A stretch of DNA of 64,000 nt from Fimbriimonadia bacterium (GTDB lineage: Bacteria > Armatimonadota > Fimbriimonadia > Fimbriimonadales > JABRVX01), in NCBI GenBank assembly GCA_041483895.1, contig JBGPGO010000001.1, positions 288,001-352,000 on the forward strand, written 5' to 3'. The stretch's first letter is position 1. Each line of letters starts with the position of its first letter. Positions 5,752 through 19,123 of this stretch are shown piece after piece. Both the position numbers and the translations under genes were made by a program. The notes beneath the pieces are model-generated. The model was not told the origin of the DNA. It did not search any database and saw nothing but the letters and a program-made list of their open reading frames with translations.

Positions 5752-6714
5752 ATGCCCTACGAGATGTTTGACCCAAACCGGCTTCACATCGAGCCGTTGG
5801 CCCAGCGAGAACATTTGCAGAGTCTGGAAGAGATGTACCGATTGGATGAGCCCTTCGAGATGCTCGACAATCCGAACATCCAGACCATAGCGAAAGACAT
5901 TCTCGCGGCGCGGAAGCGCAATGCCTCCGTCATCCTCACCATGGGCGCGCACGTGATCAAATACGGCCTGTCGCGCTTCATCATCGACCTCATGCAAAAC
6001 GGATGGGTCACCCACGTCGCCACCAACGGCGCGGGGCCGATCCACGATTATGAAATGGCGATGATCGGTAAGACATCCGAGAGCGTGCCCAACTATATCC
6101 GCAAGGGGCAGTTTGGCATGTGGAAGGAGACGGGAGAGCTGAACCGCGCGGCGGTCATCGGCGCGGAACAGGGGATTGGGCTCGGCGAGGCGATCGGAGG
6201 CCTGATTGAGAAAGAGAAGTTTCCCCATCGGGATGTCAGCGTTTTCGCGTCGGGATTTCGTCTGCGCGTGCCGGTGACCGTGCATGTCTGCATCGGCCAA
6301 GACATCATCCACCAGCATCCCAACTTCGATGCCGCCGCCACCGGACTCTGCTCCTATCGCGACTTCCTTATCTTCGCCAACAGCGTGTGCAACTTGGAAG
6401 GCGGTGTGTTTCTCAACTTCGGCTCCGCCGTGATGGGGCCGGAGGTCTATCTGAAGGCGCTCTCGATGGCCAGAAACGTGGCGTACCAAGAAAGTCGGCA
6501 GATTTCAGATTTCACAACCGCCGTCTTCGACCTCATCCCGATCACGGGAGAATTCCACGACGAACCGCCGAAGACCGATCCGCGCTACTACTATCGTCCC
6601 TGGAAAACCATCCTCGTTCGCACCGTCGCCGATGGCGGCCAAAGCTACTATGTGCAAGGCCATCACAAGGACACCGTGCGCACGCTTTGGAGGCGCCTTC
6701 GGGACCTTTCGTAG
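5752..6714 (+). CDS. Deoxyhypusine-synthase-like conserved protein of unknown function
   Basis: VILTMGAHVIKYGL..IIDLM..GWVTHVATNGAGPIHD and GGVFLNFGSAV resemble DHS-fold NAD-binding segments. Confidence 0.65.
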   Translation: MPYEMFDPNRLHIEPLAQREHLQSLEEMYRLDEPFEMLDNPNIQTIAKDILAARKRNASVILTMGAHVIKYGLSRFIIDLMQNGWVTHVATNGAGPIHDYEMAMIGKTSESVPNYIRKGQFGMWKETGELNRAAVIGAEQGIGLGEAIGGLIEKEKFPHRDVSVFASGFRLRVPVTVHVCIGQDIIHQHPNFDAAATGLCSYRDFLIFANSVCNLEGGVFLNFGSAVMGPEVYLKALSMARNVAYQESRQISDFTTAVFDLIPITGEFHDEPPKTDPRYYYRPWKTILVRTVADGGQSYYVQGHHKDTVRTLWRRLRDLS

Positions 6715-6884
6715 GACCGCGAGAACCTCGGGCTCCCAATCTCGTCAACAAACTGTCCAGAGTCCTATCGCTGCAAAGCGTGGCGGGCGAGAGGAGTATG
6801 CTGTCTACACTCCGAACACATCTGGAAGACGTGTGGCCCCCTGCCATCGGTTGGGGGCCATCCGCCACGTGTTGGGAGGGTTCT

Positions 6885-7316
6885 ATGCTCAAGGAATTCA
6901 AACAGTTTGCCATGCAGGGCAACATGCTCGATCTCGCCGTTGGACTTATTCTCGGCGTTGCATTTGGCGCGATTGTTACGTCGCTAGTAGGAGATGTGAT
7001 CATGCCTGCGATCGGCGGAATCTTCGGCGGGTTCGATTTCAACAATCTCTGCTTCAACTTGTCCGGTGTGCACTATGATACGATGGATGATGCGGTGAAG
7101 GCCGGCGCTCCACTTATCAAATACGGCACGTTCTTGACGAAGGTGATTGACTTTGTCATCGTGGCATTTGTCATATTCTTGTTGGTGCGCGGCGTCAATC
7201 GGATGCGGAAGCAGCCGGAAGCTGTGCCGGATACGAAAGCGTGCCCGTTTTGCATGCAGAACATCCCGATTGCGGCGAAGAAATGCGCGTTCTGCACCTC
7301 CGAGGTGCCTGCATAG
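6885..7316 (+). CDS. mscL: Large-conductance mechanosensitive channel with C-terminal zinc ribbon
   Basis: MLKEFKQFAMQGNMLDLAVGLILGVAFGAIVTSLVGDVIMP, YGTFL..VIDF, and a CPFC...CAFC tail. Start at ATG 6885 after GGGAGG. Confidence 0.95.
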   Translation: MLKEFKQFAMQGNMLDLAVGLILGVAFGAIVTSLVGDVIMPAIGGIFGGFDFNNLCFNLSGVHYDTMDDAVKAGAPLIKYGTFLTKVIDFVIVAFVIFLLVRGVNRMRKQPEAVPDTKACPFCMQNIPIAAKKCAFCTSEVPA

Positions 7317-10875: not shown

Positions 10876-12531
10876 CTAGTTCTTTACCGAGACGTTGCCG
10901 GTGACCACCGTGCCATCTTTCGATAACAAATCGTGGTCGCTGGTGTAGTTCTGATTGTCGTACACGACAACGCCGGTGAATTTGTTCCAGATCCTGATCC
11001 GAAATCGATCCGGACCTGAATCGCCGAAGACGTCCCCGTCATATAACGTGACGCGGAAGTTGAACTTGCCGCTGCCGTTGACGGTTCCAGTACCAGTGAT
11101 CTCAGCGCGTCCGCCGGCAGAAACCAAACTGTCGATGGTTGTGCCAAGGAACTTGACGCTACCGGTTTTGAATTCAAACTGGATTACGCCGATCGGCATG
11201 CTCAAGGGACTGTTCAAATTCGCGAAGAAACTAAATGAGGCAGAACCCCTTGCCGCGTAGGTTTTCGGTACCGCGCCGAGCGGAGAATTGATCCAGCCGC
11301 TGCCGCCGACAAACCCGCGTTTTTCTTGGAAGTAGTTTTCGAACGCCATGCGGGCAATCGTGCGTCCGCCGGCCTGTGCGTCCTGATTGCTGTACTCAAA
11401 GTGAATACCGCCGTAAATTCGGCTGCGGCCCGCTTCCGCGGCCGCCTCCGAAAAGGCCGTATACGATCGATCCGGCTGTCCGTCAGAACCGGTGGTGAAG
11501 TTCACCGTATCGGTGCCAAAGTACAAAGCAAGCACCTGTGCCGCGCCGCCGCTGAATGTGCTGTGTCCAGACGAGTATTCCGGGAAGTTCGGCGTGACGA
11601 TGAACGATGACCATGTGGTGTCTGCGGTGGTGGCACGGATTGCGGTAACCGGCCTCCACCAATTGTAGGCAAACTTATTGTCCCAACACGAGATCGCCGC
11701 ATCTGCCTCCGCAATATTCAAAATCGCAAACAGCCGAGCGTTCTCAACAAGTGATAGTCCGAACTGTCCAGAAATATCCTGGGCAATCTGATTCCAGTGT
11801 CCAGGGGGCGTGACCGTTCCCGCGCCATCCGCCCAAAAGAGTGCGATTGCGGACTGGTCCGCAGTGCGGGTGGCGCTCGTGTTCTTCCCCAACGATTGAG
11901 TTTCAAGCATCGTTGCCAGGTCTTCCGCCGAGCCTAGGGCGGGGGGACCGGAACCGCGGAACTTCGATCCGGTAAGAATGCCAAAAGGCTTCACGAGAGG
12001 CCAGTTCGGCAGGAGCGCGGGTAGGAAGCCCGGAGGTGTCGGTTGCCAATCTCCCGGATCGGTACCGGGAACATAGGGAACGACGTCGGTGGAGTGATCG
12101 CCAACGCGCGACAAGAGCATCTTGTCGCCGGCGATGCCCCCAACATTGATCCCCTCCGTCTTCTCCGCTCCATTCGGAATGCCGGCAAGCGACGCGGTTC
12201 GGGCGGCGTCGAACGTCGCGAGCTGCGCAGGGTACAGGCCCTTAAGCACTCGATAAGCCGCTTCCACAACAGCGGCCTCTTTGGAAGCCGTGGACGAAGC
12301 ATTGATTGGTGTCAGATACACGTTGTAAGATTTATCGATCGCGTTGACCGCGTCAAAAATCGCGCAATGCACCATCGCCATGGCACGGGATGACTTGGGT
12401 GGCGGGGTCTTATCTACTTTGATTGCGTTTAACAAAACGTTGTTCCAATCGAAAACAACGTCCGCCGAGCCGGAGCCGGCAATCAAGAAGACCCCGAGCG
12501 CCATAAATGACGCCAGAAGATAGCGTTTCAT
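10876..12531 (-). CDS. Secreted vanadium-haloperoxidase/PAP2-family protein with extra C-terminal beta domain
   Basis: KFAYNWWRP, PNFPEYSSGH and SRIYGGIH motifs; signal peptide. Confidence 0.85.
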   Translation of the reverse strand: MKRYLLASFMALGVFLIAGSGSADVVFDWNNVLLNAIKVDKTPPPKSSRAMAMVHCAIFDAVNAIDKSYNVYLTPINASSTASKEAAVVEAAYRVLKGLYPAQLATFDAARTASLAGIPNGAEKTEGINVGGIAGDKMLLSRVGDHSTDVVPYVPGTDPGDWQPTPPGFLPALLPNWPLVKPFGILTGSKFRGSGPPALGSAEDLATMLETQSLGKNTSATRTADQSAIALFWADGAGTVTPPGHWNQIAQDISGQFGLSLVENARLFAILNIAEADAAISCWDNKFAYNWWRPVTAIRATTADTTWSSFIVTPNFPEYSSGHSTFSGGAAQVLALYFGTDTVNFTTGSDGQPDRSYTAFSEAAAEAGRSRIYGGIHFEYSNQDAQAGGRTIARMAFENYFQEKRGFVGGSGWINSPLGAVPKTYAARGSASFSFFANLNSPLSMPIGVIQFEFKTGSVKFLGTTIDSLVSAGGRAEITGTGTVNGSGKFNFRVTLYDGDVFGDSGPDRFRIRIWNKFTGVVVYDNQNYTSDHDLLSKDGTVVTGNVSVKN

Positions 12532-12747
12532 AACCTCTCCCTTGTGAGTTCGCGGACGGCGACCACGGAAATGCTCCGGTTAGTTGATCACGCAGACCCA
12601 ACATCTTGGCATCAACCCGGACGCATTAGCCTCCAAATTCCACGTCATAGATTTGTACGACAACCTGTCGCGTACGGCATTCTATCGCAAAGTCGCTGTT
12701 TCTACAAGCTGGCAACTTTGTCGGGAAATGACTTTGTTAAAAGGACG

Positions 12748-12783
12748 ACGCGGCGGAGTGAGTGCCGGCACGCCGCCGCGTCT
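12748..12783 (-). terminator. GC hairpin downstream of the asparagine-synthase-like gene (putative terminator)
   Basis: gacgcggcgg...ccgccgcgtc stem, followed on the minus strand by a short T run. Confidence 0.45.
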
Positions 12784-12819: not shown

Positions 12820-14271
12820 TTAGGCCGCCTGGGACCTCCCCACCAATCGCCCCATTTCCGGGACAAAGTGCTTCCGCCACAGACGGTAGTACAAAACCTC
12901 TTCTTTGTTGCGCAAAGGCTCGCTCCACGGTTCCGCCCGCCCTCCCGCGAACATCGAATCGGTGATTTCGCGCTCCGCGTACGCCCGGAGCACAGAATCG
13001 ACACCCGCGCCTTCCGCAAAGGATCGACGAGGTTGACGCAGGATCCAGTTCGGAAGCTCGTCGGAAAATGCGTGGCGGAGAATCCACTTGGATTCGCCGT
13101 TCGCGCCCGTTTTCATCCAATCGGGCAGGGAGAACGCGAGTGCGATGACCTGCCGGTCCAAAAACGGCACTCGCGCCTCCAGCCCGTGCGCCATGGTCAT
13201 TCGATCCATCCGCTGAAGCTCCGTGTTGTGGAGACCGGAAGTGAGGCGCCACAAACAGGCATTGCGCTCCGCGGGCGGAAGTTCTCGTAGGCTGGCGTGC
13301 CCTCCAAAAAGCTCGTCGGCGCCATCACCGCACTGCACGGAGGAAACATGCTTCTTGGCGGACTCCGCCAGGTAATAGTTGCAGACAGCCGAGCGAACGA
13401 CCTGAGCGTCAAACGATTCCAACAGGTGGATCACCTTTGGAAGTATCTCCACTACTTCGTCGGGGTGGAGAATTCTTTGCGTGTGGGCGCAGCCGAGAGC
13501 CCCCGCCGCCCTTTCCGCGGCCACGATATCCGCACTCCCTGCCAGCCCGACGGAGAATGTGCGAACCTGTGTTTGGATCTGCCCAAGCAGCCACGCCAAA
13601 ATCGAGCTGTCCAGGCCGCCCGACAGGAACACGCCGGACGGGTCCCCCACATCGGTCAGCCTTCCGACAGCCGTCTCAATCGCGAGCCGCAGCCGGGGAG
13701 CCGCTTTGTCAATGGTGAGGCTGCCGTCGGACGGTTCCGGGAGGCTGTAAAATCGGCCTTTTCCGCTGCGGGAGTGATAGAAGCAACCCGGCGGAAACTC
13801 GCGGTAGTTCGAACACATTTTTCCGAACGCCTTCAGCTCGGAGGCGAAGATGCGTCCCTCATCCCGCTTGGCGTAATAAAGCGGCTTAATTCCAATCGGA
13901 TCGCGGGCGACGAAGAAGTCGTTTCCATCCCGCAATAGGATCGCGAAATGGCCGTCAAATTTCTGCAGGCAGTCAATGCCGTTTTCTTCGTACAATCGCA
14001 GGATGGTGTCGGCGTCGGCGGCCTCTTGCGGCGCAGCGCCTTTGCAGAATATGCGGCCGTTGTACGCCAAAATCCGTTTGCCATCTTCGCTGACGGCCGG
14101 CGCAGTCACGCAGTTTCGGCCCAGAGCGGAATGGATCCTCTGCCCGATGACCATCTTCGCGCAAGACAGAATGTTGGCTCCGTCGGGTCCGCGATGACGG
14201 ATGCGACTCAGCATCTTAGAAACACTGTTCGCATCTCCCGTAGATATCGTGCAAACGAATCCACTCATCAT
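12820..14271 (-). CDS. Asparagine synthase (AsnB)-family protein lacking the N-terminal catalytic Cys
   Basis: HRGPD, RDPIGIKPLYY, FASELKA, LSGGLDSS, GDGADELFGG and DRMTMAHGLEARVPFLD motifs. N-terminus is (M)MSGF rather than MCGI. AAGGAGG RBS. Confidence 0.88.
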   Translation of the reverse strand: MMSGFVCTISTGDANSVSKMLSRIRHRGPDGANILSCAKMVIGQRIHSALGRNCVTAPAVSEDGKRILAYNGRIFCKGAAPQEAADADTILRLYEENGIDCLQKFDGHFAILLRDGNDFFVARDPIGIKPLYYAKRDEGRIFASELKAFGKMCSNYREFPPGCFYHSRSGKGRFYSLPEPSDGSLTIDKAAPRLRLAIETAVGRLTDVGDPSGVFLSGGLDSSILAWLLGQIQTQVRTFSVGLAGSADIVAAERAAGALGCAHTQRILHPDEVVEILPKVIHLLESFDAQVVRSAVCNYYLAESAKKHVSSVQCGDGADELFGGHASLRELPPAERNACLWRLTSGLHNTELQRMDRMTMAHGLEARVPFLDRQVIALAFSLPDWMKTGANGESKWILRHAFSDELPNWILRQPRRSFAEGAGVDSVLRAYAEREITDSMFAGGRAEPWSEPLRNKEEVLYYRLWRKHFVPEMGRLVGRSQAA

Positions 14272-14361
14272 GCGTGACCCTCCTTACAGTCTTTTGACTG
14301 CTCGCGGAGAATCGATAGAACGATTGGAGTCTCGACCGATTCAAAAGGCTCGAGGCTTTCC

Positions 14362-14480
14362 TGCTATGTCTGCGAGGTTAGCTGACGGGTTAGGGCCAGA
14401 ATTACCCTTTCCGACCGAAGCCGGAATTCACCCCGATAATTGGTTCCCCCGCTTTCCGTTCTACCGGAAACTCGACGTGA
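14362..14480 (-). ncRNA. c-di-AMP riboswitch (ydaO/yuaA class)
   Basis: Minus strand reads GUCGAG..GCGGGGGAACC..UCGGGGUGAAU..GGGUAA..CCCUAACCCGUCAGCUAACCUCGCAGAC. This matches the ydaO consensus blocks in order and lies in the 5' UTR of the AsnB-like gene. Confidence 0.9.
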
Positions 14481-14513
14481 GCCAAATCAGGCAACTTGCC
14501 TGACGGTGACACC

Positions 14514-14522
14514 AGTATACCA
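14514..14522 (-). promoter_or_regulatory. Extended -10 promoter for the riboswitch-AsnB-like transcript
   Basis: TGGTATACT (TGnTATACT) about 35 nt upstream of the aptamer. Confidence 0.55.
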
Positions 14523-17911: not shown

Positions 17912-18748
17912 TCACACCGTGGAGCGCTTACGCAATCGCAACGCCCCCAGCCCCATGCCAACAAGAACAACGGCGCTGCTTGGTTCCGGCACAGAATTAA
18001 ACTGCCAGCTAAGAATGTCCTGGTGAGCCCCGAGATCGCCCGCTGCTCCGGTGAAACCAATCCAAGCCCTGCCGTCTGACATTGACAGAGTCGAGGCAAG
18101 ATTGAGATTGATCATCAGCTTCGGAGTAACAAGATCATCCATCCAAACCGTCCATGAACCGGGCAAATAGGATATGCGAACAGTGTGTGTTGCATTGTTG
18201 TTTATGTCCGGAATGTTCTTATTCCACCCGAGCGAGTATTGAATGTCGGCGGAATTGGGAAGCAGGCCCCGCGTCTGCAAACTTGTCCAATTGTCGCTCG
18301 GGTCCCCAGACGGGATACCGCCATCCCCTACCAGATTACGGTAGTAATCGAACTGTTGCGCGATGCAGTTTGCGATTCCAACGGTTTCGCCTGGGCGATC
18401 CGCGTATCCGAGCTGACCGCCACGACCACCCATCGCGTTAACCTGTTGATTCTGGATAACGAACGCGAATCCATCATTAGAACCGAATGCTTGGAATGCG
18501 AACGTGGTTGTAAATCCGGCCGCCACGCTTTGCTTTGTGGTGTACCACCCCGCACTAGCTTCGGCACTCAAACGCAATAGATTGTTGGCCTGGTGTCCAT
18601 TTCCGACAAAAGTGATGCCCGACGTATCGGTGAAATTATTATAGTTAAAGTCCGCGTTGGCGACCGTCGGACCGACGATAGCTCCTATACCGAAAACCAC
18701 ACTGAGTACTGTGACTCGACGACCGGAAAACTTGATTGCTGATGACAT
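17912..18748 (-). CDS. PEP-CTERM protein with L-type (legume) lectin-like domain
   Basis: GFTTTF, DGFAFVIQ and AWIGFTGAAG..HQDILSWQF; C-terminal VPEPSS + TM + RLRKR. Confidence 0.85.
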   Translation of the reverse strand: MSSAIKFSGRRVTVLSVVFGIGAIVGPTVANADFNYNNFTDTSGITFVGNGHQANNLLRLSAEASAGWYTTKQSVAAGFTTTFAFQAFGSNDGFAFVIQNQQVNAMGGRGGQLGYADRPGETVGIANCIAQQFDYYRNLVGDGGIPSGDPSDNWTSLQTRGLLPNSADIQYSLGWNKNIPDINNNATHTVRISYLPGSWTVWMDDLVTPKLMINLNLASTLSMSDGRAWIGFTGAAGDLGAHQDILSWQFNSVPEPSSAVVLVGMGLGALRLRKRSTV

Positions 18749-18965
18749 TTTCGAACTCCTTAAGTTTGGTAAATGCCATCCGGCGGGTCGCTTCCATTAC
18801 AAAACAACGGGGATAGTATACAGCTGTTTGTGTCAAACGCAGAATTGCGGCGACACTCATCGATTTCGAAGGCGGCCCGTTTCGGAGCGGTGGAAGCGGC
18901 CAGTGACTTGAAATGAAGGAGCAACGCCTCTTTAAGGTTGTCAAGGGCCCCTTGTTCAGTCTCTT

Positions 18966-19089
18966 CAATGATGCGACCGGTCTCCCGACCGAGTCGCGTG
19001 TCTTGACTTCACCTAGCCCTGAATTCTCCAATGATGCGACCGGTCTCCCGACCGAGTCGCGCGTCTTGACTTCACCTAGCCCTGAATTC
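18966..19089. repeat. Tandem duplication, 63-bp period (two 61-bp copies, one mismatch), with internal hairpin
   Basis: caatgatgcgaccggtctcccgaccgagtcgcgYgtcttgacttcacctagccctgaattc occurs twice. Confidence 0.9.
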
Positions 19090-19123
19090 AACCTAAAACT
19101 GCGGGTTGGAGTAGTATTGTCCC

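Follow-up and report, generated by a model that had tools for sequence, protein, structure and literature searches.

A c-di-AMP riboswitch ahead of an eroded, selected AsnB-fold gene in Fimbriimonadia, a likely remnant of an opine dehydrogenase-B12 mutase operon

A stretch of 64,000 nucleotides from a Fimbriimonadia bacterium (contig JBGPGO010000001.1, positions 288,001 to 352,000; hereafter the window) carries on its minus strand a cyclic di-AMP (c-di-AMP, ydaO-type) riboswitch followed by an asnB-like gene encoding a 483-aa protein. The riboswitch belongs to a known class, and its target is unusual and conserved: probably not an amidating enzyme but an eroded AsnB that is kept under selection. 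We give about an even chance to the reading that the riboswitch likely blocks translation of a non-catalytic AsnB-fold binding protein, which would be the remnant of an operon of opine dehydrogenase, B12-dependent mutase and AsnB predicted to make a compatible solute.

The riboswitch and the protein it precedes

A single RF00379 match was found by cmscan in the whole window, with 83.5 bits against a gathering threshold of 38 (E 5.8e-18) and covering model positions 1-134 of 134. It encloses the region 14362-14480, where an earlier sequence-only reading of the stretch had placed a complete ydaO-type aptamer, and the riboswitch observation is confirmed. The match ends 81 nt before the asnB-like start codon, which places the aptamer in the 5' leader, and it is the sole RF00379 match in the window's genome (G000; 3.95 Mb, 43 contigs, 95% complete), where nhmmer agrees with the genome scan. 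The diadenylate cyclase that was to be looked for is encoded on contig C3; it is of the CdaA type (PF02457; TIGR00159, 214 against 188.8 bits) and has the DGA and RHR motifs. The PgpH-type phosphodiesterase domain PF07697, the one phosphodiesterase type searched for, was not found in this genome.

A pairing between a loop and the 3' tail, forming a pseudoknot, is part of the c-di-AMP riboswitch structure and can form in the window aptamer (Table 1). It recurs in 13 of 13 aptamers from operons of the kind described below, with paired sequences that differ among them. Its mean length is 6.6 bp, and exchanging tails between aptamers lowers this to 5.3 bp; none of 2000 such exchanges gave as high a value, a figure that is no probability since the aptamers are related sequences. 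The J1/2 segment of the window aptamer reads GAG with a G for the A of the consensus GAA. A variant ligand was considered on this account and rejected: GAG is present in many other aptamers of the phylum, among them those ahead of S9-type, hisB and small-protein genes, and is therefore not linked to asnB. The element thus resembles other RF00379 riboswitches in its full-length match, 5' leader position, pseudoknot and accompanying cyclase, but departs from the typical ones in the AsnB-fold target with eroded active sites, the leader without terminator and the GAG of J1/2.

The extended -10-like element, the small hairpin and the Shine-Dalgarno sequence of the leader are present as they had been read. 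A TATACT or TATAAT box stands at the equivalent place in the two searched relatives of the same family (G001 and G002) and in G014, a genome of another family (f4); the upstream TG is not common to them, and no full sigma-70 promoter was detected in the leader by a consensus scanner. G001 and G002 also have a hairpin, of other sequence, at the equivalent place ahead of the aptamer. The terminator scanner finds no terminator-like site between aptamer and start codon, in line with the lack of an obvious U-tract noted before, and transcriptional attenuation was rejected for this leader. Because a GC-rich hairpin and T-run follow the stop codon, the asnB-like gene is probably monocistronic, which agrees with its description as stand-alone; the same scanner does not list this hairpin (12782-12747).

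The protein contains Asn_synthase and GATase_7 domains (Pfam), is of the short type, and is nearest by both sequence and structure to E. coli AsnB (1ct9) and human ASNS (6gq3). Its structure model (pLDDT 89.5; TM 0.88-0.90 to 1ct9) shows the complete two-domain fold of Ntn and ATP-pyrophosphatase parts, and the PP-loop SGGLDS is intact (S217-S222). In contrast to both enzymes, the N-terminus M-S-G-F puts Ser at the Cys1 position, Glu348 of E. coli (human Glu364) is replaced by Asp316, Arg447 by Gln, and Lys449 (human Lys466) by Arg415. The scores lie below the curated cut-offs of every family matched (TIGR01536, 262.8 against 267.1; PRK09431, 354 against 499); the intact sister AsnB of G014 passes TIGR01536 at 399. 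The match of the glutamine-site Arg49 is ambiguous owing to a one-residue shift in the alignments, and a deletion of 7-8 residues near residue 80 sets the G000 protein apart from its clade.

Residues were compared in an alignment of 79 AsnB rows, with the E. coli numbering mapped via PDB alignments. Glu348 and Lys449 are kept in all 57 rows outside two degenerate clades; 48 of these have Cys1 and nine have Ser or Ala there. The window clade consists of eight full or near-full length proteins, from G000, G001 and G002 together with five from databases, and close homologues of the window locus are labelled Fimbriimonadia or Armatimonadota by their sources. All eight members have Asp for Glu348 and Arg, His or Gln for Lys449, the six rows with an N-terminus all have Ser for Cys1, and the PP-loop is kept. 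Human ASNS E364A and E364Q are inactive and the equivalent of Lys-466 is essential in E. coli AS-B, according to the portion of PMC6748925 that deals with these mutants. Since the glutaminase nucleophile and two otherwise invariant synthetase residues are changed, the protein is likely not a working enzyme.

Ratios of nonsynonymous to synonymous substitution (dN/dS, Nei-Gojobori) are 0.089 for G001 against G002 and 0.13-0.16 for G000 against each of them, the latter with dS of about 2, near saturation. These low values indicate that the gene is being kept. They bear on the idea of a non-functional leftover, in which gene and riboswitch persist by inertia after an operon has broken up. Such a leftover would fit the changed catalytic residues, the deletion near residue 80 and the partner genes not found in G000, but the frame of 483 aa is open, the pseudoknot is intact, eight full or near-full clade members exist, and purifying selection (dN/dS 0.09-0.16 with dS 0.5 to about 2) largely refutes it; we regard it as very unlikely.

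Peptidoglycan amidation or synthesis of the osmolyte N-acetylglutaminylglutamine amide (NAGGN) had been proposed from the sequence. AsnB homologues do carry out both; the long AsnB type (about 630 aa) includes peptidoglycan amidotransferases, and NAGGN synthesis involves an acetyltransferase partner gene. The passages of PMC7288161 on gene targets also place c-di-AMP riboswitches near cell-wall and osmoprotectant genes. The window protein, however, scores 161.7 against a cut-off of 570.1 for the NAGGN amidotransferase family TIGR03104, lacks Cys1, and as a short-type protein falls outside the long-AsnB clade of Bacillaceae/Anoxybacillus proteins, a comparison with no characterised peptidoglycan enzyme among the tree rows. 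That clade includes the second AsnB of G000 (636 aa, contig C24), which is intact and has Cys1. No peptidoglycan-synthesis or GNAT family was present among the neighbours scanned, and no acetyltransferase among those in the window, for which no genome-wide search was made. Both proposals lack support and are highly improbable.

Beta-lactam synthetase and CarA are AsnB-derived ligases that have no glutaminase activity, act on an N-carboxyalkyl amino acid and keep the catalytic lysine. They are matched by sequence and fold, with TM of 0.71-0.76 compared with 0.90 for AsnB, and unlike them the window protein has lost this lysine.

The operon of relatives and the origin of the locus

The aptamer lies directly before the orthologue in both family relatives and in G014; these are the three of 20 AsnB loci of the window's order in which it is directly upstream within 1.5-kb flanks. 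The pairing of riboswitch and gene, described before as unusual, is thereby conserved. Outside the phylum no such pairing was found among the matches listed (80 loci; best nhmmer E 0.99), with a profile built from 31 aptamers that included the one of G036. In G014 the riboswitch, asnB, an opine dehydrogenase gene and a gene for a B12 protein are adjacent in this order, and the AsnB is intact.

A total of 20 wider AsnB regions, chosen after their neighbours had been seen and enriched for the operon, were analysed. Sixteen of them contain AsnB together with an opine dehydrogenase (PF02317; 1bg6, E 1.7e-75) and a protein of 550-630 aa with an N-terminal B12-binding domain, and the aptamer stands at the head of 12 of these 16 loci, two being only partial matches. 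By cmscan the operon aptamers were confirmed in eight of 12 loci submitted and in two more in separate scans. Two gene orders occur, riboswitch-opine dehydrogenase-mutase-asnB, sometimes with MscS, and riboswitch-asnB-opine dehydrogenase-mutase. Another sample was picked by the mutase: 77 genomes matched among the 401 of the phylum, and 40 loci were taken from these, excluding loci already seen. Here the opine dehydrogenase adjoins the mutase in 39 loci (convergent in three), the aptamer is directly upstream in ten, and six have an AsnB match in the same direction no more than 3 kb away, one of them partial. By these counts opine dehydrogenase plus mutase form the core regulated unit and the usual target of the riboswitch in the phylum, with AsnB as an optional third gene. 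An ATP-grasp protein adjoins the pair in one locus. Three loci (L217, L218, L222) have the two genes tail-to-tail on opposite strands, which is not an operon.

The mutase is found in six of the 228 genomes of the window's order. The intact trio is present in four (G014, G030, G131 and G176), with the aptamer at the head in all four; within f4, G014 alone has the aptamer (1/19), AsnB (1/29) and the mutase (1/29).

An AlphaFold2 model of the B12 protein (pLDDT 90.9) retrieves glutamate mutase first (Foldseek E 6e-16), followed by lysine 5,6- and ornithine 4,5-aminomutase, and its barrel aligns to GlmE over 378 residues (VIA Z 35.8, rmsd 3.1). Like GlmS/GlmE it combines an N-terminal B12-binding domain with this barrel, but it is a single chain of about 15% identity, has CxHxxG or DxHxxG depending on subtype, and is tied to opine dehydrogenase. 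It is predicted to be glutamate-mutase-like, and the shared fold does not give the substrate. The B12 family has many members: 7,823 of the 8,000 candidates that were scored pass E 1e-30. Two subtypes, of about 630 aa with DxHxxG (L167, L174, L175, L177, L180) and about 550 aa with CxHxxG (L168-L173), are both seen in AsnB operons.

Zhang et al. 2009 (PMC2667541) described, as of unknown function, a predicted B12-dependent family encoded beside octopine/nopaline dehydrogenase; in several organisms a gene for asparagine synthase or D-Ala-D-Ala ligase lies close by. The relatives carry the same gene pair as in that account, whose section on the cluster mentions neither a riboswitch nor Armatimonadota; the model obtained here presents the B12 protein as a fused enzyme resembling glutamate mutase. 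G000 differs from the described cluster in that neither partner adjoins AsnB, the only one of the genes found. Full-text literature searches returned PMC2667541 as the sole relevant match on the gene cluster and no paper joining opine dehydrogenase, cobalamin and asparagine synth-. None was found joining the c-di-AMP riboswitch with asparagine synthase or Armatimonad-, in a scope that left aside subscription papers and the supplements of riboswitch surveys, which may list asnB; none joined ydaO with octopine, where the same supplements may list opine dehydrogenase or B12-domain genes; and none in full text dealt with an eroded AsnB under riboswitch control. In Actinomycetota and Alphaproteobacteria a short AsnB lies near a carbon-nitrogen hydrolase gene in 10 of 69 clustered loci, one of them family-scanned (Table 1).

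Quick maximum-likelihood trees join the window clade to the intact AsnB of the G014 operon as its sister, with an SH-aLRT of 99, both in 79 rows that include proteins of family f5 and in 51 rows that omit these long-branched proteins and most outgroups. The switch-asnB order and the P1/J1/2 sequence ACGTCGAGTT are common to G014 and the window locus. In G001 and G002 the opine dehydrogenase-mutase pair is located on other contigs, where the retrieved regions contain no aptamer, and the genes that flank the mutase in G001 adjoin recG in G000, inside a contig. A separate fragment of a mutase C-terminus was observed in G001 (L198:3901-4437, contig C77) beside AspT and RmuC-like genes, which follow the whole mutase in G002; it may reflect a duplication, a rearrangement or an assembly break. 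Most simply, the operon broke apart, the switch stayed with asnB, and the active sites of the encoded protein eroded. The window locus is likely a remnant of a riboswitch-controlled operon of opine dehydrogenase and B12 mutase, with or without AsnB.

Family f5, a sister family in the same order, has a more eroded AsnB clade in 18 of 20 genomes. The 14 f5 rows in the residue table have lost the PP-loop and have Asp for Lys449; L012:1074-3682 is an example (set L007, L009-L025), with no Cys1 and a TGSVES-like PP-loop. Named close homologues of these proteins are few, and all come from Armatimonadetes/Fimbriimonadales. With dN/dS of 0.025 and 0.105 in two pairs, a third being saturated, these genes are being kept as well, so close kin offer a parallel for the retention of a non-catalytic protein. 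All 18 loci have an L25/Ctc gene in front of the AsnB gene, and 17 have an ArsR-family gene after it, the remaining locus being cut by the end of its contig; no aptamer was found within 1.5 kb, and the mutase is present in only one of the 20 genomes. G036, a genome marked unpublished, is part of these counts but not of the trees, the residue alignment or the dN/dS comparisons. The idea that the f5 genes are preceded by a new RNA motif was rejected, as the shared sequence is the 3' end of the L25/Ctc gene. In four intact operons a similar ArsR gene precedes the aptamer. ArsR as a partner of the window protein was rejected too: the best ArsR match of G000 groups outside the f5 and operon ArsRs and heads what appears, from a reading of the open reading frames (ORFs), to be a hydrogenase-type operon.

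Regulation, function and competing explanations

Translational OFF control is the likely best guess for the leader, because it has no terminator and OFF is the behaviour described for the class, as for kimA/ktrAB in the relevant passages of PMC7288161. On this model the ligand would stabilise the aptamer helix GCGGGG/CCUCGC, and the freed UUCUCCGC strand would pair with the Shine-Dalgarno sequence AAGGAGGG (OFF); without ligand, the same strand could pair with the aptamer G-run (ON). Predicted pairing energies of the UUCUCCGC strand are -12.4 kcal/mol with the Shine-Dalgarno sequence and -13.1 kcal/mol with the GCGGGGGA strand of the aptamer, compared with -11.7 kcal/mol for the aptamer's own helix. 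In the window leader the Shine-Dalgarno sequence is unpaired at 26% with the aptamer helix forced and at 69% with the alternative forced. Masking the aptamer in 12 leaders clearly lowered Shine-Dalgarno access in three (G485, G573, G557), raised it in two (G001, G014) and changed it little in seven.

Under the preferred reading the protein would be made at low c-di-AMP, during potassium shortage or osmotic upshift, and may serve as a sensor or scaffold that binds ATP and a ligand that is an amino acid or resembles an opine. In the ancestral pathway, opine dehydrogenase would link a 2-oxo acid with an amino acid, the skeleton would be rearranged by the adenosylcobalamin mutase, and AsnB, where present, would amidate a carboxylate. 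Several operon neighbours fit an osmotic role. MscS genes lie in or beside 6 of 60 clustered regions by cluster labels (seven by the clustering count), proteins read as ProX-type binding proteins precede related AsnBs in two loci, and an AspT/TrkA-C transporter follows the mutase in G002. The proposal that c-di-AMP regulates amidation in osmolyte synthesis or wall modification is supported in part: riboswitch, cyclase, conserved pairing and osmotic context (MscS, ProX-type) speak for the regulation, but the amidation step is doubtful with the glutaminase nucleophile and two synthetase residues changed.

The genes after homologous aptamers, a survey of which had been suggested, include asnB in G001, G002 and G014. 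Among the best-scoring aptamers of 30 loci in the order, the targets include a family of ~100-aa proteins (12), hisB-hisH (5), PrsA-like genes (3), glutamate dehydrogenase (2) and S9-like genes (2), the last label being a reading only, with no NCBIfam match. The ~100-aa family, the commonest target, gave no Pfam match for the two members tested and was not found in G000. In family f2 (L028, L030, L034, L038, L039) the aptamer lies 220-260 nt upstream of hisB-hisH, an unexpected target. Six loci (L042, L045, L046, L048, L052, L053) have near-identical aptamers, followed by a terminator-like hairpin with T-run and a common AAAGAACCGTCGC motif; their downstream genes differ (glutamate dehydrogenase or PrsA-like), and the real target may be a small RNA.

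Amino-acid metabolism genes behind other copies of the riboswitch raise the alternative of an ammonia-dependent asparagine synthetase tied to c-di-AMP, as hisB and gdh would be. The best family and structure matches are indeed E. coli AsnB and human ASNS, but the protein stays below both AsnB cut-offs (354 against 499; 262.8 against 267.1), Glu348 and Lys449 are changed, and it descends from operon-type AsnBs. This alternative is very unlikely.

Another enzymatic role is possible, though doubtful: an ammonia- or amine-dependent amide ligase of altered specificity, controlled by c-di-AMP and acting on the opine/mutase product (in trans in G001 and G002) or on another acid. The PP-loop, Asp319, Glu320, Arg354, Arg357 and Arg367 are kept in all eight clade members, the loss of glutaminase alone is tolerated (nine of 57 other rows lack Cys1 and keep Glu and Lys), and both partner genes are present in G001 and G002, on contigs other than that of asnB. 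Against it speaks the free variation of the Lys449 position within the clade, where R, H and Q all occur, together with variation at Arg447 and in the F-x-x-G motif after it; in addition, no partner gene was matched in G000.

A more specific version of the non-catalytic reading is put forward tentatively. The riboswitch would gate a pseudoenzyme by a second messenger, an amide ligase of an orphan pathway in Fimbriimonadales, namely the c-di-AMP-controlled B12-mutase/opine osmolyte pathway, having turned into a non-catalytic metabolite sensor. One lineage, that of the window, would have kept the switch on this gene; in another the ATP loop would also have been lost and the gene fixed ahead of an ArsR-family regulator.

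A number of points weigh against a translationally controlled, non-catalytic remnant. For the switch, the ON state, when forced, is about 6 kcal/mol less stable than the free ensemble, the unpaired probability of the Shine-Dalgarno sequence at equilibrium is 0.30 free and 0.25 with the aptamer masked, and the anti-Shine-Dalgarno pairings are no better than in shuffled leaders (p 0.12-0.15; about 0.5 for G001 and G002); equilibrium and truncated-transcript folding do not demonstrate a switch. For the loss of catalysis, the PP-loop and Asp319/Glu320 are intact in the window protein, and the changes of Glu to Asp and, in G000, Lys to Arg are conservative and are of kinds not covered by the mutants in the cited portion of PMC6748925. 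For the origin, the trees carry no bootstrap, and four search methods gave no opine dehydrogenase or mutase match in G000 while the same searches were positive in four relatives, though with an assembly 95% complete this does not prove that the genes were lost. No partner of the window protein was identified in G000, and no ArsR of the f5/operon group occurs in G000, G001 or G002 among the matches placed in the tree. The osmolyte role is drawn from regulation and neighbours, and aptamers of the order also precede hisB-hisH, glutamate dehydrogenase, a PrsA-like gene and small proteins, so regulation alone is no proof of osmotic function.

Features of the window and significance

Features of the locus are collected in Table 1. 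Downstream of the hairpin that follows asnB, and probably a separate unit, lies a gene for a secreted-looking PAP2/vanadium-haloperoxidase-like protein with a post-COAP-1 domain (10876-12531, minus strand). An MscL mechanosensitive channel (6387-7316, plus strand; ORF residues 167-293) is encoded about 5.5 kb from asnB, which may be coincidence. At 18645-19091 a segment of coding length is repeated; the motif NSGLGEVKTRDSVGRPVASL appears two times in a single frame, which points to a short direct repeat in the DNA.

Table 1. Features of the riboswitch-asnB locus, and loci of two recurrent arrangements elsewhere
Feature	Position or loci	Strand	Basis
c-di-AMP (ydaO) riboswitch aptamer, RF00379, core about 14367-14477	14352..14487	-	cmscan
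Pseudoknot, loop UUCUG (14401-14397) with 3' tail CAGGA (14363-14359), 5 bp	14359..14401	-	complementarity
Extended -10-like element TGgTATACT, putative promoter	14514..14522	-	sequence; function inferred
5' hairpin preceding aptamer, 7-8 bp	14487..14503	-	predicted in all folds
Putative anti-Shine-Dalgarno/switch strand, core UUCUCCGC (14311-14304)	14303..14313	-	folding
CAGUC-AAAA-GACUG hairpin within Shine-Dalgarno-sequestering stem	14287..14300	-	folds
Shine-Dalgarno AAGGAGGG	14278..14285	-	sequence
asnB-like ORF, 483 aa, short AsnB-fold protein	12820..14271	-	Pfam/NCBIfam, PDB alignments, residue table, model
GC-rich 10-bp hairpin and short T-run, probable terminator after asnB	12747..12782	-	-26.9 kcal/mol folded stretch
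Short AsnB near carbon-nitrogen hydrolase	L057, L058, L061, L062, L064, L065, L074, L076, L084, L098
Aptamer directly before ~100-aa protein	L026, L027, L029, L032, L035, L036, L040, L041, L043, L044, L047, L050

The RNA alone is ordinary, as its class is well known. The locus joins it to a regulated and selected AsnB with replaced catalytic residues which, if inactive, would be a pseudoenzyme under riboswitch control. The pairing leads further to a compact three-enzyme operon of opine dehydrogenase, fused glutamate-mutase-like B12 protein and AsnB, a cluster left unexplained in the 2009 account (PMC2667541, section on this family). Control by c-di-AMP gives an inducing condition and a product class to look for, which makes the operon testable by expressing the three genes. 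If the tentative sensor version holds, the window protein would act in signalling with an AsnB fold, and the intact operons found in relatives would lead directly to a compatible solute and an adenosylcobalamin rearrangement that are both new.

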